Below are positions 3,819-46,970 of a stretch of 64,000 nt of DNA, piece after piece. Source of the stretch: Dehalococcoidia bacterium. GTDB lineage: Bacteria; Chloroflexota; Dehalococcoidia; UBA6926. The position numbers were made by a program, and so were the translations under genes. Below the pieces are notes generated by a model. It saw nothing but the letters and a program-made list of their open reading frames with translations, ran no database searches and had not been told where the DNA came from. Numbering within the stretch: the stretch's first letter is position 1; each line of letters opens with the position of its first letter. The stretch covers positions 1,107,168 to 1,171,167 of the forward strand of contig CBDCYO010000005.1 of assembly GCA_965224255.1 (NCBI GenBank). Reading direction: 5' to 3'.

Positions 3819-3901
3819 GTTGCAAACTCATTCACGTCATGGTAGGGTGCACAGAACGCGCGTTCTTTATCGTGTTGCAGCAACGCGCCGGAAGGAGAAG
3901 A

Positions 3902-5449
3902 ATGATGGCTCTTGCACACGTACGCAGTTGCGCAGTGGTCGGTCTTGAAGGCTCCATCGTGGAGGTGGAGGTGGACATCGCCCCCGGGCTACCGGCGTTC
4001 ACAATTGTCGGACTGCCTGACACAGCCGTTCAGGAGGCGCGGGAGCGTGTTCGTGCCGCGGTCAGGAACTCCGGCTTTGAGTTCCCGCAGCGGCGGATTA
4101 CCGTTTCCCTTGCACCGGCTGATCTCAAGAAGAACGGCACATCGTACGATTTGCCCATCGCAGCTGGCATTCTGATCGGATCCGGGCAGGCGGGCGCGGA
4201 ATTCTCGCTTGACGCTGCCGCCTTTTTCGGCGAGCTCTCACTGGAGGGGCAGGTGCGGCACACGCAGGGCGTGCTCCCGATGGCGGCGCTTGCCCGGGAA
4301 GGTGGATTAACGCAGATCATCGTTCCCGCCGTTGATGCGCCGGAGGCGGCGCTCGTTGACGGTATTGAGGTTCTGCCGGTGAGTAACCTCCGTGAGATGG
4401 TTGAGCACATCAGTGGGGAGCAGGCATGTCGGCCGTTCTACCAGACTGAGCCGCCACAGGAACCGCGTGGGGCAATTGCAGACGGGTTCGATATGTCGCT
4501 CGTACGGGGGCAAGAGAACGTGAAGCGCGCGATGGAGGTTGCGGCGGCAGGTGGCCATAACCTGGTGATGATGGGACCGCCAGGTAGCGGCAAAACCCTC
4601 CTGGCCCGGAGCTTACCCACCATCCTGCCAACCATGACGCGTGAGGAATCGCTGGACGTCACAAAGATCTACAGCGTCGCGGGGCTGCTCCCACCGGAAA
4701 GGCCGCTCATCTCCGCACGTCCCTTCCGCGCACCACATTACACGGTCTCCAACGCGGGCCTGGTTGGCGGCGGGCAGTGGCCGCGGCCCGGAGAAATCAC
4801 GCTCTCCCATCGGGGAGTTCTGTTCTTGGACGAGATGCCGGAGTTCGGCCATCACATCCTGGAGGTGCTCCGACAGCCACTGGAAGATAAGGCCGTGACC
4901 ATCAGCCGGGCGCAGGGTTCAATCACTTTCCCGGCCAATTTCATGCTCGTCGGCGCAATGAATCCCTGCCCGTGCGGTTTCTACGGTGACGTTATCAAGG
5001 CGTGCTCGTGTACCCCAACGACCATCGATCGATATCAGCGTCGTATCAGCGGACCGTTGCTTGACCGCATCGACATCTTCGTAGACGTGCCGCGCGTCGA
5101 GTACGAGAAGTTGACCGATGAGCACGCCGGGGAGACGTCCGCCGTCGTGAGAAATCGCGTGGGAGAGGCGCGAAGTCGCCAACGGGCGCGCTTCGGCGGC
5201 TCATCCGGTGTGATGACCAATGCAGACATGGGCCCAATCGAGATTCGGGAGTTCTGCGCACTCGATGACGCGTCACACGGGTTGCTCCGCGCAGCGATGC
5301 AGCAGTTGCACCTGAGCGCACGCGGCTTTCATCGTATTCTCAAGCTGGCGCGAACGATTGCAGACCTTGCAGAAGAGCCGACAATCACATCCCGGCACCT
5401 GAGCGAGGCGTTGCAATATCGCCCGCGAGAGCTTGGGGCGGCTGCCTAG
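3902..5449 (+). CDS. comM: YifB/ComM family Mg-chelatase-like AAA+ ATPase
   Basis: MMALAHVRSCAVVGLEGSIVEVEVDI...GLPDTAVQEARERVRAAV (N-terminal Lon-like/ChlI domain), Walker A GPPGSGKT, Walker B VLFLDEMPEF, C-terminal Zn-ribbon CPCGFYGD...CSC; start taken at second Met (ORF opens at 3839). Confidence 0.85.
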   Translation: MMALAHVRSCAVVGLEGSIVEVEVDIAPGLPAFTIVGLPDTAVQEARERVRAAVRNSGFEFPQRRITVSLAPADLKKNGTSYDLPIAAGILIGSGQAGAEFSLDAAAFFGELSLEGQVRHTQGVLPMAALAREGGLTQIIVPAVDAPEAALVDGIEVLPVSNLREMVEHISGEQACRPFYQTEPPQEPRGAIADGFDMSLVRGQENVKRAMEVAAAGGHNLVMMGPPGSGKTLLARSLPTILPTMTREESLDVTKIYSVAGLLPPERPLISARPFRAPHYTVSNAGLVGGGQWPRPGEITLSHRGVLFLDEMPEFGHHILEVLRQPLEDKAVTISRAQGSITFPANFMLVGAMNPCPCGFYGDVIKACSCTPTTIDRYQRRISGPLLDRIDIFVDVPRVEYEKLTDEHAGETSAVVRNRVGEARSRQRARFGGSSGVMTNADMGPIEIREFCALDDASHGLLRAAMQQLHLSARGFHRILKLARTIADLAEEPTITSRHLSEALQYRPRELGAAA

Positions 5450-5576
5450 AAACGTGAGCTTGACCGCACACCAGAGAAATTCGTAGGATAGCAGCATGGA
5501 AGTCCGTGCATTGTACCCATACGGTGCAGCCCATCCACTTCAGGCCGCGTACATGCCCGTGTAAGGCGAAGCACAC

Positions 5577-6236
5577 ATGACGAGCAGCAACGGAACGACT
5601 CTCACGCTTACGGGTGAACCCCGGGAGGCGTTGGGGCGCCACGTCAAGGCGCTCCGCCGGGAGGGGATCACGCCTGCCAATCTCTACGGACGCGGCGCGG
5701 AGTCAGTTAGTTTTCAGACATCGACGCGGGAACTCGCGAAGCTTGCTACGGACGGGGGGCGCGGGTCTCTCGTTGCACTGACCATCGGCGAGCAAACACA
5801 TCACGCCCTAATGCGCAAGCTGCAGCGCCATCCCGTGACCCGCGCCATCCTGCATGCCGATTTCTACATTGTTGAGATGAACCGCTCCGTGCAGACGACC
5901 GTGCCTGTACACGTCATCGGCAGCGCGCCCGCAGCGCGCCTGCCCGGAGCAGTCGTTACACACCTGACACACGAAGTCATGGTTGAGTGCCTGCCGACGC
6001 ATATCCCCACCGCCATCGAGGTGGACGTCTCTACCCTCGAAGAGTTGGAGACGTCAATCCATATCTCTGACATCGTGGCGCCAGAAGGCGTGGCTATTTT
6101 GACCGACGGCGAAACGATCGTCGTTCGTGCCACGCACTCCCGCGTCTCTGCTGCCATGGCGGCCGAGGACGAGGCGGATGAGGCGGCTGCAGCAGCGGCG
6201 GAGTCCCCAGCCACGGAGCCCGTAGACTCAGACTAA
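5577..6236 (+). CDS. rplY: 50S ribosomal protein L25 / general stress protein Ctc
   Basis: N-terminal LTGEPREALGRHVKALRREGITPANLYGRG and RAILHADFY...VPVHVIG pattern of L25/Ctc with acidic C-terminal extension. Confidence 0.8.
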   Translation: MTSSNGTTLTLTGEPREALGRHVKALRREGITPANLYGRGAESVSFQTSTRELAKLATDGGRGSLVALTIGEQTHHALMRKLQRHPVTRAILHADFYIVEMNRSVQTTVPVHVIGSAPAARLPGAVVTHLTHEVMVECLPTHIPTAIEVDVSTLEELETSIHISDIVAPEGVAILTDGETIVVRATHSRVSAAMAAEDEADEAAAAAAESPATEPVDSD

Positions 6237-6282
6237 GGGCCCTTGCACATACCCTGGCAAGTCGCGCTCTGTCATTCCGGTG

Positions 6283-6375
6283 CGCACCTCTGTCATTCTG
6301 AGCGCAGCGAAGAATCTACGTCCCCATTGCCGCAAACACCGAGGAGCGCAGACAGGCCTGGACTCTTCGCTCCCG
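6283..6375. repeat. MITE/REP-like element core (orientation B): tgtcattctgagcgcagcgaagaatctacgtccccattgccgcaa...
   Basis: Same hairpin core as the other eight MITE sites in this window (listed separately below); sits inside the 5' part of the annotated helicase ORF, so the helicase start is probably downstream. Confidence 0.7.
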
Positions 6376-6404
6376 TACTTGAACAAGTGTGTCACTATGT
6401 CCAC

Positions 6405-8891
6405 ATGAGTAACGAGATGATGGAAGATCGCACGCCGACCACCCAAACCGTCATCGACCGGTTGCAAGCTCGTGAGGGTTACGCGGAACAGATCGTTCAC
6501 ATTGAGCACATGCCTCATAGTTCCGCGGCCTTTGGCTCCACACGGACGCCGATAAACCGCCTTCTGCGACACGCACTGGAAATCCATGGAATCGACCGAT
6601 TGTACTCGCATCAGGCTGAGGCCATCGATGCCCTCACTGAGGGCCACAACATCGTCGTCGCCACCACAACCGCGTCCGGCAAGAGTCTCTGCTATAACGT
6701 GCCAATCCTGCATTCATACATGGAATCTGGCGCGTCGCCGCGTGGCGCAACCGCACTCTACCTCTTCCCCACCAAGGCTCTGGCGCAGGACCAACTTCGC
6801 GCACTGAAAGACCTGACACGCCCTCTCCCCAAACCACCCGTGACGGCCACGTACGACGGTGATACTCCGTATCAAAAGCGCGCCGCCATCCGCAAGTCTG
6901 TCCAGCTGCTACTCACGAATCCAGACATGGTGCACACGGGCATCCTCCCAAACCACAGGCTGTGGGCGCGATTCCTGCGCAATCTTCGTTTTATTGTCAT
7001 TGATGAAGGTCACGTCTATCGCGGCGTATTCGGCTCTCACGTGGCGCTGCTCATTCGGCGTCTCCTGCGTCTCTGTCGCAAATACGGCTCCGCACCGCAG
7101 CTCATTGTGACGACAGCGACCTTGGGCAATCCCAAGGAGCACGCAGAGGCGTTGACAGGCCTGGACGTGCTGGCGATCACGGAGGATGGCGCGCCAAGCG
7201 CGGGGCGGGAATTCGTCATCTGGAACCCGCCAGTCATCGAGGATGGCAGGAATCCCCCCACGACGAAGAATTCCGCGCGGCTACGGCGACGCGGAACCAT
7301 CGGGGAGGGAACGGAGCTCTTTGCACAGCTTGTTCACTGGGGAAAACGCACACTCGCATTCGTCCGCTCACGTTCCGCGGCTGAGTTGATGTATCGATAC
7401 GCGGAAGAGCGGATCGGCATTGCTCACGACGATCGAGCGGTCGCTGCGGGAAGTCATAGCGAGACGGATACGGTTGTGGCGGCAGGCGTGCCAGGGCGAG
7501 GACGCAGTCCGGTTAGTTCGTACCGAGCCGGCTACATGCCGGAAGAGCGCCGTGAAATTGAGGTGAAACTCGCAAGTGGCGAACTGACTGGCGTGGTCAC
7601 GACAAACGCCCTCGAGCTGGGCATCGACATCGGCCACCTGGATGTGACGCTGCTGAACGGCTACCCCGGGTCCCTGTCGGCCACATTTCAGCAGGCGGGC
7701 CGATCCGGTCGGCGTACGGATCGCGGGCTATCAATCATGGTGTTGAACGACAATCCGCTTGATCAGTACTTGGGCAAACACCCGGATATCCTGTTTCGGC
7801 GTGGAATGGAGCACGCCCGCATCTCCACCACCAATCCCCGCATTCTTGATCCTCACGTCATATGCGCAGCCTTTGAGGCTCCTCTCGGCTCAATCCCAGG
7901 GGACATCGACATGTTCGGCGGGGACGATGTGGCGTCCGAGGCCCTTGAACGTCTTGCAGAGGCAGGATTATTGACCAGGAGGCTGCACGGAGATTCAGTG
8001 TTGTGGCACCTGCACCCGAAGGCTGGTGGGCATCCCGCCGGGGACATCAACCTGCGCGCCACGTCCGGCGCACGCTATACCCTCGTCAATGAGGCAACGG
8101 GACTGATACTGGAGGAGGTTGATGAACCACATGCTTTCATGAATGCCCACCCTCATGCTGTGTACCTGCATCGTGGCGAAGAGTTTGAAGTCACGGCCAT
8201 GAATTCTGAAGAGCAGCGGATCATGCTGAAGCGTGTCCCCAGCCCCTTCTACACCGTCTCGACGGCGCACACTGAACTATCGATCACTGGAGAACGACAA
8301 CACACGGAAGGGCGTGGCGCCCGCATCGCGCTGGGCGAAGTGGAAATAACGCGGACGATGAATGAGATGACCCGTCTGCGTCACTATTCCAATGAGGAGT
8401 ATCGGAACCCAACAGACGCGAATCACCCACCACGCGAGCCCATTGACCTGCCTCCGCGCAGCTTCAACACCGTCGCCCTCTGGTGGACTGTGCAGAGCGA
8501 TATGATTGACGCGCTCACTTGCCAAGGAGTCAGTGTTGTCGGCGCGCTCCACGCCCTCGAACATGCCTGTATCAGCCTATTGCCGCTGTTCGCACTATGC
8601 GACCGCGCGGACATCGGCGGTATTTCGACAGACCATCACCCGGACACAGGTGAGGCAACAATCTTCATCTACGATGGCTCGCCGGGTGGCGTCGGAATCG
8701 CTGAGCGCGGGTATGAGGTCATCCGGGACCTCTGGGAGGCAACCCTCGCCATGCTCGGCGAATGCCCCTGCACGGAGGGCTGCCCATCATGCGTGCAGTC
8801 ACCCAAGTGCGGGAACAACAATGAACCACTGGACAAACGTGGAGCGCGCCTGCTGGTCCAAGGCATACTGGACGACAACCCGCGCCCGTGA
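6405..8891 (+). CDS. MrfA/SftH-like DEAD/DEAH-box helicase with C-terminal DUF1998 (Zn-binding) domain
   Basis: Helicase motif I VATTTASGKSL, motif II FIVIDEGHVY, motif VI QQAGRSGRR; C-terminal cysteine cluster CPCTEGCPSCVQSPKCGNNNE typical of DUF1998/MrfA_Zn; start trimmed to Met after the MITE core (ORF opens at 6243). Confidence 0.8.
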   Translation: MSNEMMEDRTPTTQTVIDRLQAREGYAEQIVHIEHMPHSSAAFGSTRTPINRLLRHALEIHGIDRLYSHQAEAIDALTEGHNIVVATTTASGKSLCYNVPILHSYMESGASPRGATALYLFPTKALAQDQLRALKDLTRPLPKPPVTATYDGDTPYQKRAAIRKSVQLLLTNPDMVHTGILPNHRLWARFLRNLRFIVIDEGHVYRGVFGSHVALLIRRLLRLCRKYGSAPQLIVTTATLGNPKEHAEALTGLDVLAITEDGAPSAGREFVIWNPPVIEDGRNPPTTKNSARLRRRGTIGEGTELFAQLVHWGKRTLAFVRSRSAAELMYRYAEERIGIAHDDRAVAAGSHSETDTVVAAGVPGRGRSPVSSYRAGYMPEERREIEVKLASGELTGVVTTNALELGIDIGHLDVTLLNGYPGSLSATFQQAGRSGRRTDRGLSIMVLNDNPLDQYLGKHPDILFRRGMEHARISTTNPRILDPHVICAAFEAPLGSIPGDIDMFGGDDVASEALERLAEAGLLTRRLHGDSVLWHLHPKAGGHPAGDINLRATSGARYTLVNEATGLILEEVDEPHAFMNAHPHAVYLHRGEEFEVTAMNSEEQRIMLKRVPSPFYTVSTAHTELSITGERQHTEGRGARIALGEVEITRTMNEMTRLRHYSNEEYRNPTDANHPPREPIDLPPRSFNTVALWWTVQSDMIDALTCQGVSVVGALHALEHACISLLPLFALCDRADIGGISTDHHPDTGEATIFIYDGSPGGVGIAERGYEVIRDLWEATLAMLGECPCTEGCPSCVQSPKCGNNNEPLDKRGARLLVQGILDDNPRP

Positions 8892-8899
8892 GGGGGCCG

Positions 8900-9140
8900 T
8901 ATCACTCTGAAACGCAGCGTTAGCGACCCCTATGTCATTCTGAACGAAGCGTGCCCTCGCATGTCATTCTGAACGGAACGTGACCCCACCATGTCATTCT
9001 GAACGGAACGGAGTGAAGTGAAGAATCTAACGCGCCTCTGCCGCAGTGGGGACATGGATTCTTCGTTGTGCTCAGAATGACAGGGAGCGCTCAGAATGAC
9101 GGGGAGCGCTCAGAATGACAGGGAGGGTGGCTCAGAATGG
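8900..9140. repeat. MITE/REP-like modular palindromic element (3 left arms catgtcattctgaacgNaacg, hairpin core gtgaagaatctaacgcgcctctgccgcagtggggacatggattcttcg, 4 right arms gcgctcagaatgacagggag)
   Basis: Direct reading of tandem arm repeats and the inverted repeat gaagaatc/gattcttc in the core. Confidence 0.8.
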
Positions 9141-9828
9141 CAGAGTGGCGGCTGGTGATGTGCACGGAGGGGTAATCATTCAAACGCGCCCGGTCCAGAT
9201 TAGTTCCTCGGACGGCATCGCCCTGGAAGGACAGCTTGACCTGCCTGATGGGTCCACACCACCAACCGCCGGCGTCGTCGTCTGTCATCCACATTCCCAG
9301 TACGGAGGTGAGATGACAAATAACGTTGTGACCGCAATAGCCTCCGCCATTGTCACGCACGACTTTGCGGCACTGCGGTTCAACTTCCGTGGCGTGGGCC
9401 GCAGCACCGGCACGTACGGAAACGGCATCGGTGAACAGGACGACGCGCTTGCGGCGCTGGGCGCGTTGAAGAACGCGGCGGGTGTTGGGCGTGTCGCACT
9501 AGCGGGCTATTCATTTGGCGGTGGTGTTGCCCTGAGGGCCGCAGGTCGAGTGGGTAGCCTTGCTGCGTTGGCGCTCATCTCACCCGCGATAAGTGATGAC
9601 CAGGAGCAGGACGCCTACGCCGCGCTAGTGATGCCCAAGCTCATCGCAACCGGCGAGGCAGACGACTATGCGAGTATCGAGCGTGTACGGGATCTAGCGG
9701 CCATCCTGCCGGGCGTGACGGAACTCTACATCTCGCCGCAGACCGATCATTTCTGGTGGGGTGAAGAGGACAACCTCGCCCGTCGTGTCGGAGAGTTCCT
9801 GGCCTCGGCGTTTCGTCGAGGTGCGTAG
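9115..9828 (+). CDS. alpha/beta hydrolase fold protein (start uncertain, N-terminus overlaps MITE arm)
   Basis: VVCHPHSQYGG...LAGYSFGGGVALRAA (GxSxG nucleophile elbow) ...PQTDHFW; alternative GTG starts at 9145/9160. Confidence 0.65.
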   Translation: MTGRVAQNGRVAAGDVHGGVIIQTRPVQISSSDGIALEGQLDLPDGSTPPTAGVVVCHPHSQYGGEMTNNVVTAIASAIVTHDFAALRFNFRGVGRSTGTYGNGIGEQDDALAALGALKNAAGVGRVALAGYSFGGGVALRAAGRVGSLAALALISPAISDDQEQDAYAALVMPKLIATGEADDYASIERVRDLAAILPGVTELYISPQTDHFWWGEEDNLARRVGEFLASAFRRGA

Positions 9829-9999
9829 CGATGACAGGAAACCCGAGCCCGAGCAGAAGCGCGCTGAACTCACGGAGGATGAGTGAATGCTGCAGGCACA
9901 TCCAGATGTTACGCGGCTTGATGAGGAACTTGGCAGCGCGCTGGCAGCGCGCCCCGTTCTGCGTCAAGGCTTGGCACCGCTTTTTTGGAACAGCCATCG

Positions 10000-10527
10000 C
10001 TACCCTGTCGGTTCAGCCCAGAAAGCCACGCATCCATCCTCTTCCTTTTCGATTAGCAGGACGTCGGCGGTACCTGCCACCCTGCCGCCGGATGCGTTCT
10101 TGGCGGTGAAGTCGACGGCCACGTAGTTATGGTAGCTGCTCCTACCACCCGCGCGCTTAATTGTGAACTCGAATACTGGTATCATCTCCTCCTCCTCCTC
10201 ATCCTCCACCGCTGCGCTGAGTTTCTCGAGGTAGGAAACATTCCAGATACGATCCGGATTCTGTATCTCATTGTTCAGGAAGAGTAGCGTATCCCGCTTG
10301 CTGGACTCGAATGTGGACTCGCTTTGTGGTGTCATGTCGAGGAACTCGTAGGATCCTGGGTCGGCCAGCAAATCCTGGATGGCACTTCTGGTCGACAAGC
10401 TCAAGTGGTGGCTAGTCCTGAACTTCTCCCCGACGGTAGGGCATGGCTGCGGCGGCGGGGTCTCACACTCCGTCTCCGCTGCGCCCATCATGACGATGAT
10501 GACCAGTACAAATAACAGGTACCTCAT
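10000..10527 (-). CDS. secreted acidic hypothetical protein on a low-GC patch
   Basis: N-terminal signal peptide MRYLLFVLVIIVMMGAAE, Glu-rich block EDEEEEEM; local GC clearly below window average, suggesting foreign origin. Confidence 0.5.
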   Translation of the reverse strand: MRYLLFVLVIIVMMGAAETECETPPPQPCPTVGEKFRTSHHLSLSTRSAIQDLLADPGSYEFLDMTPQSESTFESSKRDTLLFLNNEIQNPDRIWNVSYLEKLSAAVEDEEEEEMIPVFEFTIKRAGGRSSYHNYVAVDFTAKNASGGRVAGTADVLLIEKEEDGCVAFWAEPTG

Positions 10528-10559
10528 TATCTTCCTCCCTTGTCTTTCTGCCTCTACAC

Positions 10560-10740
10560 CAGTCCCGTCCGCTTACTTTGCGGAAGGGTTCCATGCCCTG
10601 CCTGTCCTTGCCAAGCCAAGCCAAGCCTGTCCCCGCCTGGCCACGCCACGCCATGTGGCGGTAGATATCCTTGCCGTGCCACGCCACGCACTGCCTCGCC
10701 CAGCCTCGCCTAGCCGTGCCTCGCCTAGCCTCGCCTTGCC
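10560..10740. repeat. simple-sequence/low-complexity tract (ccaagcc x3, gccacgcc, cctcgcc/tagcc units; G-rich GGCGAGG units on minus strand) in the promoter region of the secreted-protein gene
   Basis: Visible short-period repeats; overlaps only spurious ORFs. Confidence 0.6.
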
Positions 10741-10783
10741 ATAAGGAGAGGAGCTGCGCAAGGCTAAACGCAAGGTCGCTGAT

Positions 10784-10836
10784 ACAAAGAGAGGAGAAGG
10801 GGATCTGCACATGCGCGATTCCCTTCTCCTCTTTGT
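10784..10836. promoter_or_regulatory. 17-bp perfect inverted repeat stem-loop acaaagagaggagaagggg...cccttctcctctttgt, 140 nt downstream of the MaoC-like gene stop
   Basis: Perfect palindrome read directly; no U-tract after it on the minus transcript, so the stem-loop is certain but a terminator role is unproven; aagagaggag motif recurs at 10745 and 10930. Confidence 0.35.
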
Positions 10837-10974
10837 CACGCCCATTGTCCTCGCTCTTGCCTTATGGCGCGCCGAGGCAAAAGGGGCCATGCGCATGAGC
10901 GCAACACGCGCTACGTGTACGTCCGAATAAAGAGAGGAGTGTTAGCCGGACGGCGGCGGCTCTAAGCCCTTCGT

Positions 10975-12079
10975 CTAGCTCTTCGAAGGTAGCGTCGCGA
11001 TGACAGGGCCCGGACCAACGGAGACGTTTCCGTTGGTGGATAGGACGGATTGCAGTTCGATCTCGATGAGGTTCTCCCCGTTTTCCTGCCACGTACGCTT
11101 GACTGTGCCGCCAGTAACGACGGTGTCGCCGACGGTGCTGAAGACGCGCATGCGGAATGAACCGATCTGCTTGATCCGACCACCGAGGCCGATAAACTCG
11201 CGCGCCACACGCTCCCACATGCCATTGTGGAAGTAGTTCATGGCGTACATATCGGCCGCGCCGCCGGCCTGCGCAACAACGGTGTTGTGATGGATGGCGT
11301 TGAAATCACGATTTGCGCCCGCGGCCATGACCATCCGCTGTATCGTCAGCGGATAGTGCACGGCGGGAACCTCATCGCCCTCGTTCACATCCTCCCAGTA
11401 GCGTTGGGAATCCCAGTCAATGGACGGGTTCGACCGCGGCTCAATGGTGCGCGCCGGCTTCTCCTCACCCGTGGCGGATGCGGCAGCCGCCCCCGCAGAG
11501 GGGTTGGGGATGTAGGTGTAGCTGACCATCAGTTGGCGCCCAACAGTGACGCCGCTCTGATTTTCAAACAGTGACTCATACGTGAGGAACGCGCCGTCGC
11601 CGACTCGCGTCCTGCGGGGGTTCACGTCCAGCAGAGTCTGCGACACTTGCGTTACCCGCTCTCCAACGTAGAGTGGCTTCAAGAACTCAACCTCAAGATC
11701 CGTAACGAAGCCGGCGGTGCCAGGCGAGGGCACGTTCTCCGTCTTGCCGGCACGGCCCGTGCCGGAGTTTGTGAAGTGCGGATCGTCCGTCGGCCAGATG
11801 CTGCCCAAGCCGGGCTCCCACATGGACGCCGTCTGGAACGTCTGAATCATGTGGAGCGGCGCGAACACGCCATCGTAGCCGTTCCTTCGCGCGACGGCAT
11901 CGTCAAAGTGCAGCGGACAGTCCATTTCCAGGACCTCCATTTGGCGACGGATCGCGCTGTGCTCCACCGCATCGATGCCTGTCTTGGGATCGAGCATGAT
12001 GTCACGCCCGACGAATTCCATGGTTGCCGACCAATCAAGCTCTGATTCGTTTGATGACGTCATCGTCTTCTCCTTGCCC
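10975..12079 (-). CDS. MaoC-like (double hotdog) dehydratase
   Basis: Two hotdog-like halves (N-terminal MaoC_dehydrat_N-like, C-terminal ...AIHHNTVVAQAGG...GGTVKRTWQENGENLIEIE); start trimmed to MGKEKTMTSS because the upstream 150 codons of the ORF run through a MITE. Confidence 0.6.
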
Positions 12080-12187
12080 ATACTCCTTGGTTCGCCTTGG
12101 TGCGCGTACGCGCACGTGGGACACGGCAATAGTGTCGTATCCCACGCCAGCACGCAAGGGAGCAGGCACCGTGAGGCGGCGTGGCGT

Positions 12188-12380
12188 GTGTACATGTCAT
12201 TCTGAATGGAACGCAGTGGAGTGAAGAATCTAACGCGCCTTTGCGGCTGTGGGGGACGTAGATTCTTCGCTACGCTCAGAATGACAGCAGGGCGCTCACG
12301 AATAACAGCAGGGGCATGCGGGCTAGCGGCGCAGAAGGGCCCGCGGGCTAGCACGGAAGAGCGCTCAGAATGACAGGAAG
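12188..12380. repeat. MITE/REP-like element (core gtgaagaatctaacgcgcctttgcggctgtgggggacgtagattcttcgctacgctcagaatgacag plus flanking arms)
   Basis: Same core hairpin and gctcagaatgaca arms as other copies. Confidence 0.8.
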
Positions 12381-12452
12381 GGCGCCGGCAGAGGACGGAG
12401 GGACGCGTCCAGGCGACAGAGCGGGAACGAGAACTGTAGGGATGCCGTCGCC

Positions 12453-13295
12453 CTACACCCCCAGGAACTCCCGGGTTGCGGCGATGAACTCCCGCGGCTT
12501 GTCGACCGTGACAACGTGGCCTGCGTTCGGCACGTCGACCCATGAAAGGTCTTTCGCCGCCGCGATCATCTTCTGCTTGAGCGTCTCATCGAGCAGGGGG
12601 CTCTCCAGTCCGCGAACCTCCAAGATTGGCTGCTCAATCGTCCCCAACGCCTTCCAGTAGCGGTTGATCAGTGTCTCATCAGTGCCGTCGGCGAGCGGGA
12701 CGGTGAAGAGCGCGGTATCCGCCTTCCATGTCCATGAGCCATCCGACGCCTGCCTGAGCTTCTCTTCCATGTCCTTTCGGAGCCGATCGTCTGACGCCCA
12801 CGGGTTATTGGAGCGAGCCCACGCGATGCCCTCGTCGAAAGTACTGAAGGACATCGGCGTCGGTGGGCGATCGCCCCATTGTGCCTTGGCTGTCTCGCTT
12901 GATTCTGGCCCAATATCGACAATCACAATACGTTCCACCTTTTCCGGGTGCTTCTCACCTGTATAAAGCAGAGAATGCCAGCCGCCCATGGAGAGGCCGA
13001 CAAGCACGAATCGGTCAAAACCCAGCGCAACGACAAGCTCGTCAAGATCCTCGACAAATCGATCCCGCGCATAGCCCGTCGATGCGTGCCCGCTCTCACC
13101 GTGTCCGCGCTGATCAACGGTGATGACGTGGAAATGTGGCGCCATCGCCTCCGCGAACTCATCCCAGATATGAGCTTGCCCCGTGTGGCCGTGCAGGCAC
13201 ACCATGGGCATCTTGCCCTCTGTCCCATAGTCGAAATAGCGAAGCGTCACTCCGTTGACGGTGACGTGCTTTTCCTGCGCTTGCGTGATGGTCAT
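12453..13295 (-). CDS. alpha/beta fold hydrolase (MhpC-like)
   Basis: VCLHGHTGQAHIWDEF...VLVGLSMGG (GxSxG) ...PNAGHVVTVDKPREF. Confidence 0.8.
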   Translation of the reverse strand: MTITQAQEKHVTVNGVTLRYFDYGTEGKMPMVCLHGHTGQAHIWDEFAEAMAPHFHVITVDQRGHGESGHASTGYARDRFVEDLDELVVALGFDRFVLVGLSMGGWHSLLYTGEKHPEKVERIVIVDIGPESSETAKAQWGDRPPTPMSFSTFDEGIAWARSNNPWASDDRLRKDMEEKLRQASDGSWTWKADTALFTVPLADGTDETLINRYWKALGTIEQPILEVRGLESPLLDETLKQKMIAAAKDLSWVDVPNAGHVVTVDKPREFIAATREFLGV

Positions 13296-13505
13296 TTCAT
13301 CCTCCTCTGTCCGGCTGTTCGCACGACCCCAGCTGCCGGCCTCAGTATTGTAGCAAGGGCGGGGACTGAATGGCGGAGCGCACGCGCACCCATTTCCTAG
13401 TGCCGATGGGGCACAGCGTGGTCAGCGCCGGTATCGTGCGTTGACGCTGTGAACAAGCGCTCCTATCCTGAGCATGGCTGCGGCCGGGAATATAGTGAGG
13501 AAGCC

Positions 13506-15932
13506 ATGACGCGTTCGACTGGCCCAAGTGGAGCGGGCCCCCTGGATGGGCTGACCGTGCTGGATCTCTCCGGGCCGGAAGGGCAGCCGTGTGGACGCAT
13601 CCTTGCTGACCTCGGCGCAGATGTCATTCTGATCGAGCCGCCATCCGGTAGCCCCTCGCGTCGGATGGCTCCATTCGCCAATGGCGAGCCCGGCCAGGAT
13701 CGCAGCCTCTACTTCATTCACTTCAACACCAACAAGCGCGGCATCGTCCTTGATCTGGATGACGCGGCTGCGCGCACACGTTTCCTAGAACTGGTTCGTG
13801 AGGCCGACGTGGTGCTGGAGTCCGGCCGACCCGGAGAGATGGACGGGCGCGGTCTGGGCTATGAGGACCTCGCCGCAATCAACCCGGGCATCATTGTCAC
13901 ATCCATCACACCCTTTGGACAGACCGGGCCGTACCGCGACTTTGTGGGAGCGGACATTGCCGTTGCCGCTATGGGGGGTGTCGTTTATGCCGAGGGCGAA
14001 GCCGTGGGCCCGCCGACGACGATGCCTCGGTACCAGGGATTTCAGATGAGCTCCGTTCATGCGGCCTTCGGTACGCTCATTGCGCTGTGGTGGCGGCGCT
14101 CAGCCGGTCAGGGACAACATCTTGACGTCTCCATGACGGAGGTGGTGGCTCACATGCACATGAACCTGATGCGCTACGCCGCCATGAGCGAGGTGTCACC
14201 GCGCCGAGGCAGCCGTGGCGGCAATGGGCCTACACAATACTTTCAGACGTCAGACGGTGAATGGGTGCAGTTGGCGCTCACAACACCGCGCCAATGGCTG
14301 GAGTTCGCCGCGTGGGTGGATCACCCATTGTTGCTTGACCCGGCGATGCGAGAGTTGAGCGCTCGGGACGCGAAATCGGAGGAGATCAACGCCATTGCCG
14401 GTCCGTTCATCAAAGGCATGACGGCGGAACAGTACTTGCATGACGGCGTGGAGAAACACGTCACCATCGCGCCTGCAAACTCCCCCGCGGATTTTGCTCG
14501 CCATCCCCACGCGGAGGTCTATAACTTCCTCTCTCCCATGCAGCATCCGGTTCTCGGCGAATACATGATTCCCGCCGGATCGGTTCAGTTTGGAGTAAGT
14601 CCGCTGAGTGTGCGACGGCCCGCACCACTGCTGGGACAGCACCAAGACGAGGTTCTCGCTGGAATCGCTGGCAAACGAACTCCTGTGCCGACGAATGGTG
14701 CAAACAGCTCTGGCGGATCAGATCTGCCGCTGGAGGGCGTGCGCATTTTGGCGTTCGAGCGGGTCTGGGCTGCGCCATTCGGCACACGATTCCTCGCGGA
14801 TTATGGTGCCGACGTCATCAAGGTGGAGTCAACGCGATTTCCGGACGGGCGCGTCTTTGATCAGGACGCCAACCCAACAGCATGGCGCAGCACCAACGCG
14901 AGCTACGGGGAGATCAACCGCAACAAGCGTTCCATTGCCATTGATCTACACATGCCTGAGGGCCAGGAGCTGTTCAAACGCCTTGCGGCAGAATCGGACA
15001 TCGTCGTGGAGAACAACGCGCCCGGCGCTATGGACCGCTTCGGTATCAGTTGGGAGCATCTGCGCGAAGTCAACCCTCGTCTCATCATGGTGAGTTGCCC
15101 CGGCTACGGCGCGATGGGGCCAATGAAGGATTTTGTCGCCGTCGGGCAGTGTCTCACCTCATTTACCGGACTCGGCTATCTGTGGGCGCAGCCGGACGCG
15201 GCATGGCCCGCGCGCGGCCGGAATGCCTATCCTGATTTCATCACGGCGGGCAACTTGACGCTGTCCATCATGGCTGCACTCCATCATCGCGAGCGAACCG
15301 GAGAGGGTCAGTACATCGAGATTCCGCAGTTTCAGGCCGCCGCGAGCGTCATCGGACTCGCCTTCCTTGAGACACAGTTCGGGGCGACGTCGGCGGAGGC
15401 GTGGGGCAACCGAGCTCCAAATGCCGCACCACAGGGCATCTACCCATGCGGCGGCGAGGATCGCTGGTGCGCCATCTCCTGCGCCGATGATGACACCTCA
15501 TGGCGCGCCCTCACCGGATTGATGGGCCGGCCTGAGCTGGCCGAGGACGATCGGTTCGCAACGTTCGCGGCCAGGCAAAGTAACCACGATTTGCTTGATG
15601 CAGAGATTTCCGCCTGGACACGTACACGCTCCGCCCATCAGGTGATGTATGCGTGTCAACACGCAGGCATTGCCGCGGGCGTCGTGGCCACCGGCGAAGA
15701 TATGTATATCGACCCGCAATTCCGGGCGCGCGGATACATCGTTGAGGTGGACCACACAATGCCTGGGCGAATTGAACATCCGGGAATGACAGTCAAACTT
15801 GGCGCATCACCGGGACGCGTTCGCATGGGCGCGCCAACGCCCGGCCAACATAATCGGGAGGTCCTCACCCAGATCCTGGGACTCTCCGACGATGACTACG
15901 CACGGTATGAGGAATCCGGCGCGCTCAGCTAG
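13506..15932 (+). CDS. tandem-fused family III CoA-transferase (two CaiB/BaiF domains)
   Basis: Two repeats of the CaiB/BaiF N-terminal pattern: LDGLTVLDLSGPEGQPCGRILADLGADVILIEPP and LEGVRILAFERVWAAPFGTRFLADYGADVIKVES; RBS gaggaag before ATG 13506. Confidence 0.8.
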   Translation: MTRSTGPSGAGPLDGLTVLDLSGPEGQPCGRILADLGADVILIEPPSGSPSRRMAPFANGEPGQDRSLYFIHFNTNKRGIVLDLDDAAARTRFLELVREADVVLESGRPGEMDGRGLGYEDLAAINPGIIVTSITPFGQTGPYRDFVGADIAVAAMGGVVYAEGEAVGPPTTMPRYQGFQMSSVHAAFGTLIALWWRRSAGQGQHLDVSMTEVVAHMHMNLMRYAAMSEVSPRRGSRGGNGPTQYFQTSDGEWVQLALTTPRQWLEFAAWVDHPLLLDPAMRELSARDAKSEEINAIAGPFIKGMTAEQYLHDGVEKHVTIAPANSPADFARHPHAEVYNFLSPMQHPVLGEYMIPAGSVQFGVSPLSVRRPAPLLGQHQDEVLAGIAGKRTPVPTNGANSSGGSDLPLEGVRILAFERVWAAPFGTRFLADYGADVIKVESTRFPDGRVFDQDANPTAWRSTNASYGEINRNKRSIAIDLHMPEGQELFKRLAAESDIVVENNAPGAMDRFGISWEHLREVNPRLIMVSCPGYGAMGPMKDFVAVGQCLTSFTGLGYLWAQPDAAWPARGRNAYPDFITAGNLTLSIMAALHHRERTGEGQYIEIPQFQAAASVIGLAFLETQFGATSAEAWGNRAPNAAPQGIYPCGGEDRWCAISCADDDTSWRALTGLMGRPELAEDDRFATFAARQSNHDLLDAEISAWTRTRSAHQVMYACQHAGIAAGVVATGEDMYIDPQFRARGYIVEVDHTMPGRIEHPGMTVKLGASPGRVRMGAPTPGQHNREVLTQILGLSDDDYARYEESGALS

Positions 15933-15956
15933 CGTCGCCGAATCAGCACAGCCGCC

Positions 15957-16880
15957 ATGACAGGCCGGCGACTCCCCCGGCAAATGACGGTTGTTCCCGC
16001 CTATCGGCTTGAAGGTCACTTTGCGGAACAGGCACTCAACCAAGTCGAACAGCTGCCGGTGGAGTCGTTTCAACAGCGGTTGCGGCTGTACGTTCGCCGC
16101 CTCCTGGCGGGTGAACAGCCCGCGTTCATTGATATCGGCGAGCGCTGGGCGATGACACAGACGGGTGAGCCGGACCTGAACGCTTTCATTCGGGCCGTCA
16201 ACGCGACGGACGCCCTCTCGCCACGCAGCATCGTCGAGGACACACTGGTTAAGTGTTCCTACGCCTTGCCGCGGCCGGATCTCTCCGCCCGTGTCGTCAT
16301 TCTCATGGGTGACGGAGAAAACCGCGGCCTGACGCAGGCCATGCAGTACGCAACCGGCGTGAGCCTTGGTTCAGGCGTCACGCTGCTATTCATCTGGCCG
16401 GTGCACAACTGGGCGGAGACGCTGGCATACATCACGGCGCACGAATACGTGCACCTGGTGCGCAACCGACTCTTCCCACGGGGTCTGATCGATGGACGCA
16501 TGATTTATGTCAAAAATGACCAGCCGGACACGCTCCTAGACGCGATGGTGACCGAGGGTATTGCCGATATCTTTGCGGGGGGAATCGTGCCCGATCATCG
16601 GCCGCATTGGATGGGTGCGCTCCCCGCAGATGTTGAACGGGACATCTGGCCGCAGGTGGAAAGTCGTCTGTCCATCACCGATCCGTTGGAAATTCGGCAG
16701 TATCTCTTCGGGGACGGAGATCAGGTGCCGGTATGGACGGGGCACACAATCGGCCATCGCATCGTGCAGTCATATATGCGCGTGCATCCTGAAGGCCGCG
16801 TCGCCTCAATCATCGGCTTGCCCGTTCGTACTCTTTTTGAGGAGAGCGGCTTTCAGCCCGGCCAGATTGACACGCCGTAA
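15957..16880 (+). CDS. DUF2268-like predicted zinc metallopeptidase (HExxH)
   Basis: HEYVH (HExxH) in ITAHEYVHLVRN plus GIADIF motif. Confidence 0.45.
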   Translation: MTGRRLPRQMTVVPAYRLEGHFAEQALNQVEQLPVESFQQRLRLYVRRLLAGEQPAFIDIGERWAMTQTGEPDLNAFIRAVNATDALSPRSIVEDTLVKCSYALPRPDLSARVVILMGDGENRGLTQAMQYATGVSLGSGVTLLFIWPVHNWAETLAYITAHEYVHLVRNRLFPRGLIDGRMIYVKNDQPDTLLDAMVTEGIADIFAGGIVPDHRPHWMGALPADVERDIWPQVESRLSITDPLEIRQYLFGDGDQVPVWTGHTIGHRIVQSYMRVHPEGRVASIIGLPVRTLFEESGFQPGQIDTP

Positions 16881-17051
16881 CCTCCACGCCTGCGGATAGA
16901 GAATTGGCGGCGTGGCCTGCATGCGCTGCTGCCCTCAAATGGAGGCCAGATGCGAAGGGCGTGAGGTGTTTGACCAGTTTCACGGCAGGTTACTAGAATG
17001 AGGGTCAACAATGAATGCCATCATAACAAGGCAATCTGGGCGCGGGTGAGA

Positions 17052-17128
17052 GGGCGGTTAGCTCAGTTGGTTAGAGCGCAGCGTTGACATCGCTGAGGTC
17101 AGAGGTTCAAATCCTCTATCGCCCACCA
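17052..17128 (+). tRNA. tRNA-Val (anticodon GAC), CCA encoded
   Basis: Cloverleaf gggcggt/D-arm tagctcagttggttagagc/anticodon stem-loop cagcg-ttGACat-cgctg/T-arm gaggttcaaatcctc/acceptor atcgccc + a + cca. Confidence 0.85.
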
Positions 17129-17183
17129 CACCTTCTTTTGTGCAGTGCGCTTGTGTCGCACGCGCTGTGACGTGGAGGAAAAT

Positions 17184-18368
17184 GTGAAGAACGGAATTCT
17201 GGCGCCCACGATGCTTGCCGTGTCTTTCCTTGTGGTCATCGCTGCGCTGGCGGGTTGCGAGGAGCAGATAGAGGAGGGGCCGCCTGTCTACCGCATCGGT
17301 GTGATGGAGTCACTCACCGGACCAGGAGAGACGTATGGCACCGTCTCGTATCAGGCAAAAAGGCTGGCGCTTGAAGAGATCAACGCGGCCGGCGGTATCA
17401 ATGGCATGATGTTGGAGCTTGTCGTTGAGGATTCCAAGTGCAATGCACAGGACGCCATCACCGCCTACAACAAGCTGACGGACGTTGACAACATCAGGAT
17501 CATTCTCGGCACGTCCTGCAGTGGCGCAATGCTCGGTGTAGCGCCGCTCGCAGAGGAGGATGGCGTTGTTCTGTTCTCCTCATCTGCGACGAATCCTGAC
17601 ATCGCAGCGGCGGGAGACTACATCTTTCGCAACTCGATCAGTGACGCGAAGCTGGGTGTCGAGGGAGGAAACCTTCTCTGGGCGGACGGCGTTCGCAAAC
17701 TGGCAGCTATTTCTGAAGCGACGGACTACGCCGAGGGTGTTCGGCGGGCGATTTCAGGTCAGTTCGAGGCACGCGGCGGGCAGGTCATCGCCACGGAGCG
17801 CTACCTGACAGACACCTTGGATTTCAGAACGCAGTTGACCGGCCTCGCCGGCCTCAGGCCGGATGCTTTGCTCATCACCGCGCAGGCTGAGGCCAGCGCC
17901 GGTGCCCTCCTCAAACATGCCCGTGAAGTCGGCTACACCGGGCCCATCTACGGAGATATTGTCGCCGTCGGTACAACATCTCTGAACGTTGCGGGTGATG
18001 CTGCGACCGGCACCAAGGCCATCATCGCAGACCTCGATCCAGCGAATCAGACGGGGCAGCGCGTCCTTGCAGATTTCAAAGCGCGGTACGACTATGTCAC
18101 CCTGCCTTGGTTCTTGGGCTCCGCCTATGACAGCGTCCACATCGCCGCAGAATGCCTTGGGACGACTGAGGATGATCAGGACACGGCCGGCTTCCGTGAC
18201 TGCCTCTATACCCTCACCTGGAGCGGCGCAATCGGCGAGAATTACTCCTTTGACAGCCGTGGTGAGGTCGTTGGCCTATCCAACGTGGTCGTTGAAGTGT
18301 TGCCCCTCGCTGAGCGTACGGAAAACAATGGAGGCTATCGGGTCCTTGGCCCTGCGCCAACTGACTAG
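17184..18368 (+). CDS. ABC transporter substrate-binding lipoprotein (branched-chain amino acid / Leu-Ile-Val binding family)
   Basis: GTG after GGAGG; signal/lipobox VIAALAGC; periplasmic binding protein type I pattern YRIGV...GTSCSGA... Confidence 0.75.
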   Translation: MKNGILAPTMLAVSFLVVIAALAGCEEQIEEGPPVYRIGVMESLTGPGETYGTVSYQAKRLALEEINAAGGINGMMLELVVEDSKCNAQDAITAYNKLTDVDNIRIILGTSCSGAMLGVAPLAEEDGVVLFSSSATNPDIAAAGDYIFRNSISDAKLGVEGGNLLWADGVRKLAAISEATDYAEGVRRAISGQFEARGGQVIATERYLTDTLDFRTQLTGLAGLRPDALLITAQAEASAGALLKHAREVGYTGPIYGDIVAVGTTSLNVAGDAATGTKAIIADLDPANQTGQRVLADFKARYDYVTLPWFLGSAYDSVHIAAECLGTTEDDQDTAGFRDCLYTLTWSGAIGENYSFDSRGEVVGLSNVVVEVLPLAERTENNGGYRVLGPAPTD

Positions 18369-18442
18369 CTGACGATGAAACAGCGACGCCTCGTCCCTTC
18401 TCACGGTTCACGCGACATGATGACGCGCTGCAGGCCGTTCAA

Positions 18443-20659: not shown

Positions 20660-20789
20660 GCTGGGTTCGCTTCTCCAAGAAAACGGTTACGGCACGTCGT
20701 AGCGTTTCTTAATGTGCATCTGTATCCAGATGAGCGCAAGCACGGAGGCAGCTCATTCGTCAACGGGGACGTGCGCTCCCCGTCATTCC

Positions 20790-21062
20790 CATTTGCCCCC
20801 GTCGTTCAGAATGACGTGGTGTGCGTGCCGCATCCGTCGAGGGCGCGCGCTGGCTGTCTTCTCCGCCCCTGCGGCCCTGGGGGCATAGATTCTTCGCTGC
20901 GCTCAGAATGACAAAAGGTAAACGCTCAGAATGACCGGGAGGCGTACGTAATGACAGGAAGGCGTACGTAATGACAGGAAGGACGCTCAGAATGACAGGA
21001 AAAGCGCTCAGAATGACAGGAAGGACGCTCAGAATGACAAAAGGAAAGGGAATGACGGCGTA
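20790..21062. repeat. MITE/REP-like element with expanded right arms (6 x gcgctcagaatgacagg / cgtacgtaatgacagg units)
   Basis: Direct reading of tandem ~22-bp arm units and core gcatagattcttcgctgcgctcagaatgaca. Confidence 0.8.
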
Positions 21063-21123
21063 TTCCGTGATGAGAGGGGTTCGAACCCGCGCTGATATGA
21101 TTCTGGAGTGGAGGTAGCGAACG

Positions 21124-22503
21124 ATTCTTGACCGACGGAGGATACGCGAGGCGCCGGATGAGACGCGGGCCGTGCTTGCCCGACGGGGCGATCCTGACGC
21201 GCTTGCTGTCCTTGACGAAATCGTGTTGCTCGATGCCGAATGGCGCGCTGCGCAAGCTCGCGCTGATGAACTCCGCGCTCAACTCAACACGCGCTCCCGT
21301 GCGTTTGGCGCGTTGCGTGGCCGTGCCGGGCGGGGCGAATTGACACCGGAGGTTGTTCTGGGCACTCCCGGTGTCTCGGAACTACTCGGTGATCGACCGG
21401 AGATGGGCGGCCGGTCCGTCGATGAACTCATCGAAGCTCTTCAGGGTGCGCTGCGCGGTTTCTCAGAGCAGGTTGATGAGGCGACCCGATTTGCGGACGA
21501 TACAGACGCGCGGATCACACAACGATTGAGCCATTTGGCCAATCTGCCCGAGGAGTCTGTTCCGGACGGAGCGTCGGATGCGGACAATGTCGTCACACGC
21601 CAATGGGAAGAGCCCCGCAGCTATGATTTCCCCCCGCAGGCGCACTGGGACCTGGGGCCGGCGCTCGGCATCATCGACTTTGAACGCGGGACACGCATCG
21701 CCGGCTCTCGCTTCTACGTGCTGACCGGGGCAGGATCGAAACTACAACGTTCGCTCATCCAATGGATGCTGGACGTGCACACGCGCGAGCACGGCTATCG
21801 TGAGATCTACCCCCCTTTCGTCTCCAACGAACAGACACTGTTTGCCAGCGGCCAACTGCCCAAGTTTCGAGAGAACGTGTACCGCGATATCGAGGATGAT
21901 GTCTGGCTCGTGCCGACGGCGGAGGTGCCCCTGACGTCCATGCATCGGGGGGAGATTCTGGAGCCGGGGATGTTGCCCATCAACTACGTTGCCTACACGC
22001 CGTCATTCCGCCGTGAAAAAATGTCCGCCGGCCGCGATATCCGCGGCATCAAGCGCGGCCACCAATTCGACAAAGTCGAAATCTACAAGTACACGGAGCC
22101 GGAGCGATCCATGGAGGAGCTTGAAGTACTCCTTGGCCACGCGGAATCGATCCTGCGCCGCCTTGAGCTGCCCTACCGCATTGTGGAATTGTGCGCGGGA
22201 GACCTTGGGCAGGCGGCGGCAAAGACATACGACATCGAAGTGTGGGCGCCCGGATGCGGAGAATGGCTGGAGGTGTCCAGCTGCTCGACAACGTCTGATT
22301 ACCAGGCTCGGCGGGCCAACATTCGTTATCGGCCGGAGGCAGGCGCGCGGCCGCGGTTCGTTCATACCCTCAATGGCTCCGCGCTGGCGTTACCGCGCGT
22401 CATGATCGCGGTTATGGAGACGTATCAACAGGCGGACGGCAGTATCGCCATTCCTGACGCTCTGCGCCCGTACACAGGTTTCACACACATTACGCGCGAA
22501 TAG
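21124..22503 (+). CDS. serS: seryl-tRNA synthetase
   Basis: N-terminal coiled coil, class II motifs FRREKMSAGRDIRGIKRGHQFDKVE and GSALALPRVMIAVMET; conserved N-terminus ILDRRRIREAPDETRAVLARRGD extends upstream of the first GTG/ATG to a frame that opens right after a TAG at 21115-17, so start codon is non-canonical (ATT 21124?) or there is a sequence error. Confidence 0.85.
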   Translation: MLDRRRIREAPDETRAVLARRGDPDALAVLDEIVLLDAEWRAAQARADELRAQLNTRSRAFGALRGRAGRGELTPEVVLGTPGVSELLGDRPEMGGRSVDELIEALQGALRGFSEQVDEATRFADDTDARITQRLSHLANLPEESVPDGASDADNVVTRQWEEPRSYDFPPQAHWDLGPALGIIDFERGTRIAGSRFYVLTGAGSKLQRSLIQWMLDVHTREHGYREIYPPFVSNEQTLFASGQLPKFRENVYRDIEDDVWLVPTAEVPLTSMHRGEILEPGMLPINYVAYTPSFRREKMSAGRDIRGIKRGHQFDKVEIYKYTEPERSMEELEVLLGHAESILRRLELPYRIVELCAGDLGQAAAKTYDIEVWAPGCGEWLEVSSCSTTSDYQARRANIRYRPEAGARPRFVHTLNGSALALPRVMIAVMETYQQADGSIAIPDALRPYTGFTHITRE

Positions 22504-26932: not shown

Positions 26933-26934
26933 GC

Positions 26935-28363: not shown

Positions 28364-28384
28364 TGCGAATGTACGGCCTTTCCG

Positions 28385-45452: not shown

Positions 45453-46970
<1,518 letters not shown>

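Follow-up and report, generated by a model that had tools for sequence, protein, structure and literature searches.

Small bacterial repeats in which a short unpaired tag precedes a hairpin have been described under two names. The CGTC-tagged repetitive extragenic palindromes (REPs) were defined in 2013 (Di Nocera et al., PMC3733652): the tag is often TGTC, stems of 8 to 9 bp start with A-T, and a short loop is combined with a CCA tail. The paper describes mostly inverted dimers, lists five phyla, includes Neisseria dRS3 and Rickettsia RPE-4 and RPE-6, and argues that many REPs are transcribed. It found neither a dedicated transposase nor CGTC units flanking the gene of a REP-associated tyrosine transposase (RAYT); the intragenic dimers in its supplement have their tags outward. 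The second name, Ssn-related motifs (SRMs), is tied to the NTS of Neisseria, CGTCATTCCCGCGMAVGCGGGAATCYRG (Chenal 2025, PMC11893778). SsnA (NMV_0044 in N. meningitidis), a 94-aa single-domain GIY-YIG nuclease, binds NTS only as single-stranded DNA and on one strand, and does not bind RNA; its cut falls a few nucleotides 5' of the tag. The three bases ahead of the palindrome are important for cutting, the C behind it for SsnA binding. SsnA lowers transformation by NTS-bearing DNA, and motifs lie near 71% of ssnA homologues (PMC11893778). Here we analyze a repeat family in a 64,000-nt stretch of a Dehalococcoidia bacterium genome (contig CBDCYO010000005.1, positions 1,107,168 to 1,171,167), hereafter the window. 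A first-pass annotation had reported an abundant, modular, REP-like palindromic family at nine sites and could name no described family for it. Both described classes fit: with a probability that we put at roughly 0.78, the window repeats represent Ssn-related motifs, catalogued earlier as CGTC/TGTC-tagged REPs, that have undergone a lineage-specific expansion.

All coordinates are positions in the window, to which the repeat analysis of the source genome applies. The string GTCATTCTGA was found exactly 29 times, against 0.10 expected, and GAAGAATCTAC, with at most one mismatch, 16 times against 0.38 expected, a count that none of 100 shuffles reached. All of these matches fall within the nine sites, save for one copy of GTCATTCTGA inside a CoA-transferase gene (13623-13632). 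A cmsearch with a covariance model trained on copies from other phyla recovered 15 complete modules at E<0.001, nine of a short type (X) and six of a long type (Y), none of them outside the nine sites, and a seventh, degenerate Y at 27097-27138 (E = 8.7). The presence of the repeat at these sites and its abundant, modular, REP-like palindromic character are thus upheld, as is its mostly intergenic placement.

The unit is a directional hairpin module of 28 to 42 nt. It opens with an unpaired YGTC tag and a 5-bp stem whose first pair is A-T; an internal loop of tandem G·A/A·G mismatches separates this stem from an inner mini-hairpin, mostly GC-GNA-GC, and the closing stem, an invariant C and a short tail complete the module. 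The whole can be written as (Y)GTC-A-NNN-Y-GA-[inner hairpin]-GA-R-N'N'N'-T-C-tail. Its stem has nine positions, A-T, T-A, T-A, C-G, T-A, G·A, A·G, G-C and C-G, two of them non-Watson-Crick; the loop is a GNA triloop in X, nested hairpins are present in Y and many relatives, and the tail reads CTA. All window modules (n = 15) contain YGTCAT...AATC except for a single TGGC tag: the tag reads (T/C)GTCAT in 14 of 15 and TGGCAT in one, and the C right after the stem (...AAT-C) is present in 15 of 15. The tag is kept in copies from other phyla, and the commonest tails in other genomes are CTA, CTC, CTG and CCA. Because the G·A tandem is confined to the tag strand, with C·T on the complement, the sequence points to a strand-specific single-stranded form.

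X is TGTCATTCTGAGCGYAGCGAAGAATCTAYG with a conserved 3' extension, TCCCCAYTGCSGCA; Y, CATGTCATTCTGAACGNAACGNAGTGRAGTGAAGAATCTAA, is related to X yet different. In the window, the two types form inverted pairs in which the tails face each other and the tags point outward, in the order Y then X in four pairs and X then Y in three. What had been taken for a single symmetric core hairpin of ~55 nt is such a tail-to-tail pair, and its ccgcagtggggac "loop" corresponds to the conserved 3' extension of X. A Y partner is missing for two X modules, one at 6289 (alone) and one at 20884 (with a one-sided half-unit array), so the claim that every copy is palindromic holds for the X/Y pairs and fails for 6289-6320, a single module, and for 20884-21039, a single X plus its array.

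The repeated arms of these elements are tandem half-units, each made up of a short spacer, a tag and the hairpin's 5' half. Those of X type adjoin X and those of Y type adjoin Y, on the tag side of the complete module, and their conservation is highest beside that module and falls outward. Tandem Repeats Finder (TRF) gave arrays of 2 to 6.7 copies, whose periods are 19 to 21 nt on one side and 30 to 32 nt on the other. The right arms had been described as the reverse complement of the left; instead, they are half-units of X opposed to half-units of Y, which differ in period and are complementary over only ~12 nt. The variable, expansion-like arm number that had been noted is borne out by the TRF copy numbers, and, since the spacers are array-specific, the sequences point to an origin of the arrays through local tandem amplification. 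The parts identified in the window are as follows.

6289-6320, plus strand: solitary X (cmsearch 42.5 bits, E = 1.9e-7), 53 nt past the L25 gene stop, with its 3' extension reaching ~6336
8932-9010, plus strand: Y-type half-unit array (TRF period 30, 2.7 copies), each half-unit being a tag plus the 5' hairpin half
8990-9031, plus strand: long Y (cmsearch 29.6 bits, E = 1.8e-4)
9053-9084, minus strand: short X (cmsearch 35.4 bits), tail-to-tail with the Y at 8990
9070-9125, minus strand: X-type half-unit array (TRF period 19, 2.9 copies)
12193-12234, plus strand: long Y (cmsearch 26.7 bits)
12257-12288, minus strand: short X (cmsearch 41 bits)
12273-12313 and 12359-12381: X half-units after the X at 12257, the former by TRF (period 21, 2 copies), the latter as repeat family D5
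20884-20915, minus strand: short X without a partner (cmsearch 42.6 bits), in a divergent region between MMPL and SerRS (seryl-tRNA synthetase) genes
20900-21039, minus strand: one-sided X-type half-unit array (TRF period 21, 6.7 copies)
27043-27138, plus strand: Y-type half-unit array (TRF period 32, 2.5 copies), ending in the degenerate Y at 27097-27138
27160-27244, minus strand: short X at 27160-27191 (cmsearch 41.9 bits) plus X half-units (TRF period 21, 3.1 copies)
28398-28536, plus strand: Y-type half-units (repeat families D16 and D18), then a long Y at 28495-28536 (cmsearch 30.6 bits)
28558-28589, minus strand: short X (cmsearch 41.5 bits)
56749-56780, plus strand: short X with the tag TGGC (cmsearch 32.3 bits)
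56817-56977, minus strand: long Y at 56817-56858 (cmsearch 32.2 bits) plus a Y half-unit array (TRF period 31, 3.4 copies)
58975-59113, plus strand: degenerate X half-units (from sequence), then a short X at 59081-59113 with a 1-nt insertion (cmsearch 27.6 bits)
59164-59238, minus strand: long Y at 59164-59205 (cmsearch 28.4 bits) plus one half-unit (repeat family D13)
62400-62601, plus strand: about eight decaying X half-units (from sequence), then a short X at 62570-62601 (cmsearch 42.5 bits)
62652-62790, minus strand: long Y at 62652-62693 (cmsearch 28.4 bits) plus Y half-units (from sequence)

The hairpin is supported by covariation among 47 distinct cross-phylum sequences, which were collected with anchors that did not demand pairing. 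Paired cells made up 89.4%, compared with 73.5% in shuffles, and two-sided changes were seen in 55 cells, compared with 13.2 in shuffles, none of 500 reaching 55. Compensatory changes occurred in six of seven pairs, and the covariation score was 0.484 for the real structure and at most 0.14 for controls with slid partners. Outer stem variants found elsewhere are all self-complementary (TTC/GAA, TCC/GGA, TGC/GCA, CCC/GGG and TAC/GTA). The inner stem varies as GC..GC, AC..GT, GCC..GGC and GGGC..GCCC, and the inner hairpin takes the forms GC-GNA-GC, AC-GNA-GT, GCC-GAA-GGC, GGGC-TTCA-GCCC and longer ones.

The modules are spread widely among bacteria. Scanning for TCTGAGCGYAGCGAAGAATCTA with one genome per species gave at least 118 loci, this 22-nt core being common to at least 118 species genomes from ~20 phyla, as read off the record titles among the matches listed. 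Those matches include Chloroflexota, Bacteroidota, Bacillota, Cyanobacteriota, Acidobacteriota, Planctomycetota, Verrucomicrobiota, Desulfobacterota, Campylobacterota, Patescibacteria and Nitrospirota. The flanks differ between loci, and isolate genomes (Calothrix, Pedobacter and Flagellimonas) are among the carriers, which, together with the covarying variants, speaks against the idea that the 22-mer recurs across phyla through an adaptor or assembly artefact. Pairs elsewhere have their tags outward in 55 cases, against 6 with tags inward and 5 in direct orientation. Their partners are often unlike variants, such as TTC with CCC, so each module is self-consistent rather than matched to its partner. 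In other genomes, 11 of 147 clusters lie inside long open reading frames (ORFs), and among 2.9 million viral contigs there were six exact matches. A Fibrobacter metagenome-assembled genome (MAG) has an in-frame module in an apparent lipoprotein signal peptide (MKNSFPSVILSVAKNLAMLSIAAVMFVACGG, ~7170-7260 of locus L005), a tolerated intragenic copy. Two Dehalococcoidia MAG loci (L099 and L111) contain the exact Neisseria meningitidis NTS consensus (CGTCATTCCCGCGAAAGCGGGAATCCAG) along with G·A-type modules.

Close relatives of the source genome differ in their modules. The SucC protein encoded in the window (28998-30164) is 84 to 88% identical to the best-matching proteins from other genomes, one of which (86%) lies on a contig titled as a Dehalococcoidia MAG. 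The nearest relatives compared, L119 and L120 (SucC 85 to 86% identical), are syntenic with the window, and their intergenic DNA is too diverged for an empty-site alignment. L119 carries a TTCC variant of the module. L120 keeps the gene order of the window, SerRS-Pnt-MFS...tRNA-Ser-sucCD (MFS, major facilitator superfamily), and contains no module across 21 kb; because this region is largely syntenic with the window, the abundance of modules is lineage-specific. Between the MFS transporter gene and tRNA-Ser/sucC lies a variable island (window 26932-28757, L119 2471-9657, L120 8801-9844), which holds a methyltransferase gene between two motif clusters in the window, Fic, PIN, CoiA-like and methyltransferase-HNH genes in L119, and a single unannotated, motif-free ORF in L120.

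The lead to a partner enzyme was a tblastn search with a GIY-YIG consensus, which pointed to ORFs in three loci (L082, L066 and L065). Pfam confirmed proteins of 91 to 96 aa with GIY-YIG (PF01541) as their only domain, and in L082 and L066 the genes lie between modules of exactly the window variant. The bracketed gene in L066, at 3870-4139 of a Zixibacteria contig, has an in-frame stop codon, which may mark a pseudogene or a fault in the assembly. The L082 protein had no match among PDB sequences, and none of the best 120 homologues of an Ssn-like protein lies on a known Dehalococcoidia contig. Scanning metagenomes with the GIY-YIG proteins yielded 80 loci at 51 to 71% identity. Strict G·A-type modules occurred within 300 nt of the gene ("near") at 17 of the 80, on both sides at 12, with a density of 1.54/kb near and 0.165/kb far from the gene. 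A general tag-hairpin was found near the gene at 76 loci, on both sides at 63, with tags outward and densities of 7.4/kb near the gene, 0.9 far from it and 0.3 in shuffles. Motifs fitting the published SRM pattern stand beside the gene at 18 of the 80 loci, some of them agreeing with the NTS consensus at all positions except the first, which ties the G·A-type and published motifs together. Relaxed typing assigned 40 loci to the G·A type and 36 to other types, and motif type tracks the nuclease protein cluster (36:8 versus 1:21; Fisher p = 9e-10). Since modules bracket GIY-YIG genes elsewhere and motif type tracks the nuclease clade, the window family is, as judged from sequence, a variant of Ssn-related motifs with its own nuclease subclade.

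This result supplies a name and a likely partner enzyme for the window repeat. A G·A-bulged motif invisible to the published pattern flanks 40 of the 80 nuclease relatives sampled, about half, and censuses based on that pattern would therefore undercount. The correspondence between motif type and nuclease clade is the pairing needed to choose Ssn enzymes with new single-stranded DNA specificities.

An account modeled on NTS and SsnA in N. meningitidis can be outlined. The module would fold when replication, repair or DNA uptake leaves the DNA single-stranded, and a ~95-aa single-domain GIY-YIG nuclease would bind it on one strand and cut a few nucleotides 5' of the tag. By this analogy, the genome studied here would encode such a nuclease, and the window modules would be among its substrates. 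A nuclease gene bracketed by its own motifs resembles a domesticated insertion sequence, and the repeats are probably multiplied or maintained by that nuclease. Clusters of motifs around accessory genes, in the window a DNA methyltransferase gene and the gene for a 993-aa methyltransferase-like protein, would be expected to reduce single-stranded DNA recombination there. The layout matches the NTS-gene-NTS arrangement by which Neisseria recombines less with incoming single-stranded DNA, and by analogy we infer a comparable effect on this cell.

The assignment to Ssn-related motifs builds on direct observations, namely the sequence and anatomy of the modules, the covariation of their stems, their breadth across phyla, and the association of the variant with GIY-YIG genes in other genomes. 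Several points weigh against it. The published pattern, HGTCWYN(0-2)YYVSBRHN(0-5)WNVSBRGN(0-2)RNCYNB, fits NTS and neither X nor Y, and it has no match in the window; X and Y fail it at the G·A mismatch position, and the pattern is a search heuristic rather than a functional definition. No GIY-YIG gene was found in the 64 kb (best E, 0.1 by tblastn and 8.5 by profile). The GIY-YIG proteins from other genomes were assigned by size, single domain and flanking motifs and are putative members of the family of SsnA. The half-unit arrays are explained neither by the Ssn system as known nor by either paper (PMC3733652 and PMC11893778).

Folding energies also count against the assignment. By nearest-neighbour energies, a lone module is weak (-1.9 kcal/mol as DNA, -4.6 kcal/mol as RNA; z ~0) and no better than shuffles, so the case for its structure rests on covariation. 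GCGNAGC is reportedly, from work by Hirao and colleagues, a very stable DNA mini-hairpin, for which nearest-neighbour models give no credit. Whole X/Y pairs fold well (z of -3.5 to -4.4). Both partners in the window have the same stem, and by these models a pair could form one long hairpin in which the tags are buried.

The repeats might instead act at the level of RNA, with transcribed hairpins ending transcription or protecting mRNA 3' ends, as is reported for some E. coli REPs. The X/Y pairs would make long RNA hairpins (-39.9 kcal/mol, z = -3.85) at sites that are mostly intergenic, cluster contexts in other genomes are tandem in 54 cases and convergent in 23 against 16 divergent, and transcription of many REPs has been argued, as mentioned above. 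The terminator- or insulator-like role proposed in the first-pass annotation is nevertheless not supported. A hairpin followed by a T-tract is absent at the four clusters within the scanned segment, 5500-22000. The sites had been placed after convergent or tandem gene ends, which is correct in part; three of the nine (20790-21062, 28385-28612 and 62400-62765) lie between divergent genes. Solitary modules elsewhere are not co-oriented with the flanking genes (14 versus 11, p = 0.69), G·U-type and A·C-type mismatches are equal in number (5 versus 5, no excess, and too few to be informative), and SsnA does not bind RNA, as described above. We therefore consider an RNA-level function improbable, while the modules may have a side effect on transcripts.

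A classical REP/REPIN system, mobilized by a RAYT of the IS200/IS605 Y1 HUH type, would share with the window family the outlines of its architecture, with tagged hairpins, inverted doublets and mosaic clusters, and a RAYT-associated REP of Marinomonas has a similar ...CATGAGCGGAGCGTAATG... centre. The tag, however, is YGTC and not GTAG/GTRG, and the gene found between modules elsewhere encodes a small single-domain GIY-YIG nuclease, not a Y1 transposase of the IS200/IS605 or RAYT kind that had been suggested as the cognate enzyme, although no dedicated Y1 profile search was made. A BLASTP all-against-all comparison of 170 ORFs of at least 90 aa beside modules revealed no recurrent family, in a screen coarse enough to overlook the GIY-YIG genes, and the 2013 paper describes no RAYT set between CGTC units. 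This explanation is very unlikely. To the remaining one, that the repeats are miniature inverted-repeat transposable elements (MITEs) derived by deletion from an insertion sequence that has a DDE transposase, the GTCATTCTGA arms being their terminal inverted repeats, we give hardly any credence: the inverted ends (TGTCA...TGACA) and the multiple end-proximal repeats, which may resemble Tn7 or Mu ends, are outweighed by the existence of solitary modules, by covariation that is internal to the self-contained hairpin and not with the partner, by the pairing of unlike variants elsewhere, by free variation in length (32 to >350 nt) and arm number with no fixed-size element in the window, and by flanks in which, on inspection short of a systematic search, target-site duplications were not evident.

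Other candidates were set aside. The conserved positions fit none of hammerhead cores, K-turns or box C/D motifs, integron attC sites, dif/Xer sites, Tn7- or Mu-type multi-site ends, or LexA boxes. Rfam returned no family match for the window at gathering thresholds, nor for 8850-9200 at E up to 10, and a literature search by sequence string gave primers and other chance matches only.

The half-unit arrays may bear on how Ssn-related repeats spread. In other genomes, half-units also lie on the tag side (89 versus 30), with spacing peaks at 19 to 24 nt and at ~30 nt (32 of 201 sources). On our own reading of the Neisseria oligonucleotide data (PMC11893778), SsnA would cut ~6 nt before the tag, and a cut at that distance would coincide with the unit junction of the 19-nt arrays, so far a coincidence. 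A bolder and rather doubtful proposal is that the G·A-bulged modules form a separate large specificity class of Ssn nucleases, missed by the published pattern, and that the tag-side arrays are footprints of a nuclease copying its motifs. If so, the arrays would be the first handle on the multiplication of CGTC REPs and SRMs, a question open in 2013 and in 2025.

Other tandem repeats lie close to the clusters. Arrays of 62-nt units at 59256-59439 (3.0 copies) and 62807-63140 (4.9 copies) stand just outside the clusters that flank the gene for the 993-aa methyltransferase-like protein, and cluster plus array form a direct repeat (59091-59233 and 62579-62721, 92%; 59185-59405 and 62732-62952, 88%). 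A 61-nt array of 2.5 copies (56979-57129) follows the cluster at 56690-56975, and the units of these 61- to 62-nt arrays have GCGGCAGTG in common with the 3' extension of X. The window, which is 60.7% G+C, also contains a 16S rRNA gene (45456-46966, minus strand). Adjoining it is a 60-nt tandem array of nine copies with 93% matches (44680-45220), which overlaps a 249-aa ORF without a Pfam match; also near this gene is a 111-nt direct repeat of 98% identity, with copies at 47199-47309 and 49068-49178, 1.9 kb apart.

Among the genes of the window, two are flanked by clusters on both sides, as had been reported: a type II/III-like methyltransferase gene (27224-28363) and the gene for the 993-aa methyltransferase-like protein (59433-62414), which had been labeled a restriction-modification fusion. 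Much of the intergenic space is filled by the repeat, which inflates ORF calls. The mechanical ORFs at 9115-9828 and 10975-12543 enter repeat clusters, with Pfam domains that start at residues 33 and 191, respectively, and their N-terminal parts are probably artefacts of open frames across repeats; a similar artefact may underlie the TTG start of the helicase ORF (6243).

Among known systems, the bacterial interspersed mosaic elements (BIMEs) of E. coli, with their Y and Z palindromic units, and the REPINs with their RAYT resemble the window family in having two unit subtypes that are always opposed, copy-number variation among clusters, an enzyme gene present once and flanked by repeats of its own kind, and a single-stranded DNA hairpin as substrate. 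They differ in their GTAG tag, in the HUH tyrosine transposase fold and chemistry, and in that BIME arrays repeat whole units rather than half-units. With the CGTC REPs, the window family shares a TGTC/CGTC tag, a nine-position stem starting A-T, T-A, an unpaired tail starting with C, mostly inverted dimers, heterodimers included, a mostly intergenic placement with occasional in-frame copies, and no dedicated tyrosine transposase. The window modules depart from them in having G·A mismatches at two of the nine stem positions, a GNA triloop or longer nested hairpin in place of a 4- to 5-nt loop (the paper notes exceptions in loop length), a CTA or CTC tail instead of CCA, and a host from the Chloroflexi, outside the five phyla listed there for CGTC repeats. 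A family listed in that paper may nevertheless have this consensus.

NTS and the other SRMs (PMC11893778) occur in hundreds of copies and cluster around particular genes, a feature that we count as shared. Compared with them, the window modules have a stem that tandem G·A mismatches interrupt and in which an inner hairpin of varying length is nested, are arranged in short/long heteropairs with tandem half-unit arrays, and come from a Dehalococcoidia-like member of the Chloroflexota, in a variant known from sequence alone. In common with them, they have a directional, unpaired (C/T)GTCAT tag with the hairpin directly behind it, an A-T stem start as in NTS, a conserved C after the stem, a hairpin-forming palindrome of 20 to 50 nt, supported for the modules by covariation, an occurrence in many phyla and, in other genomes, a ~95-aa single-domain GIY-YIG gene bracketed by the same variant. 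The assignment thus extends the Ssn/SRM system to Dehalococcoidia-like Chloroflexota.

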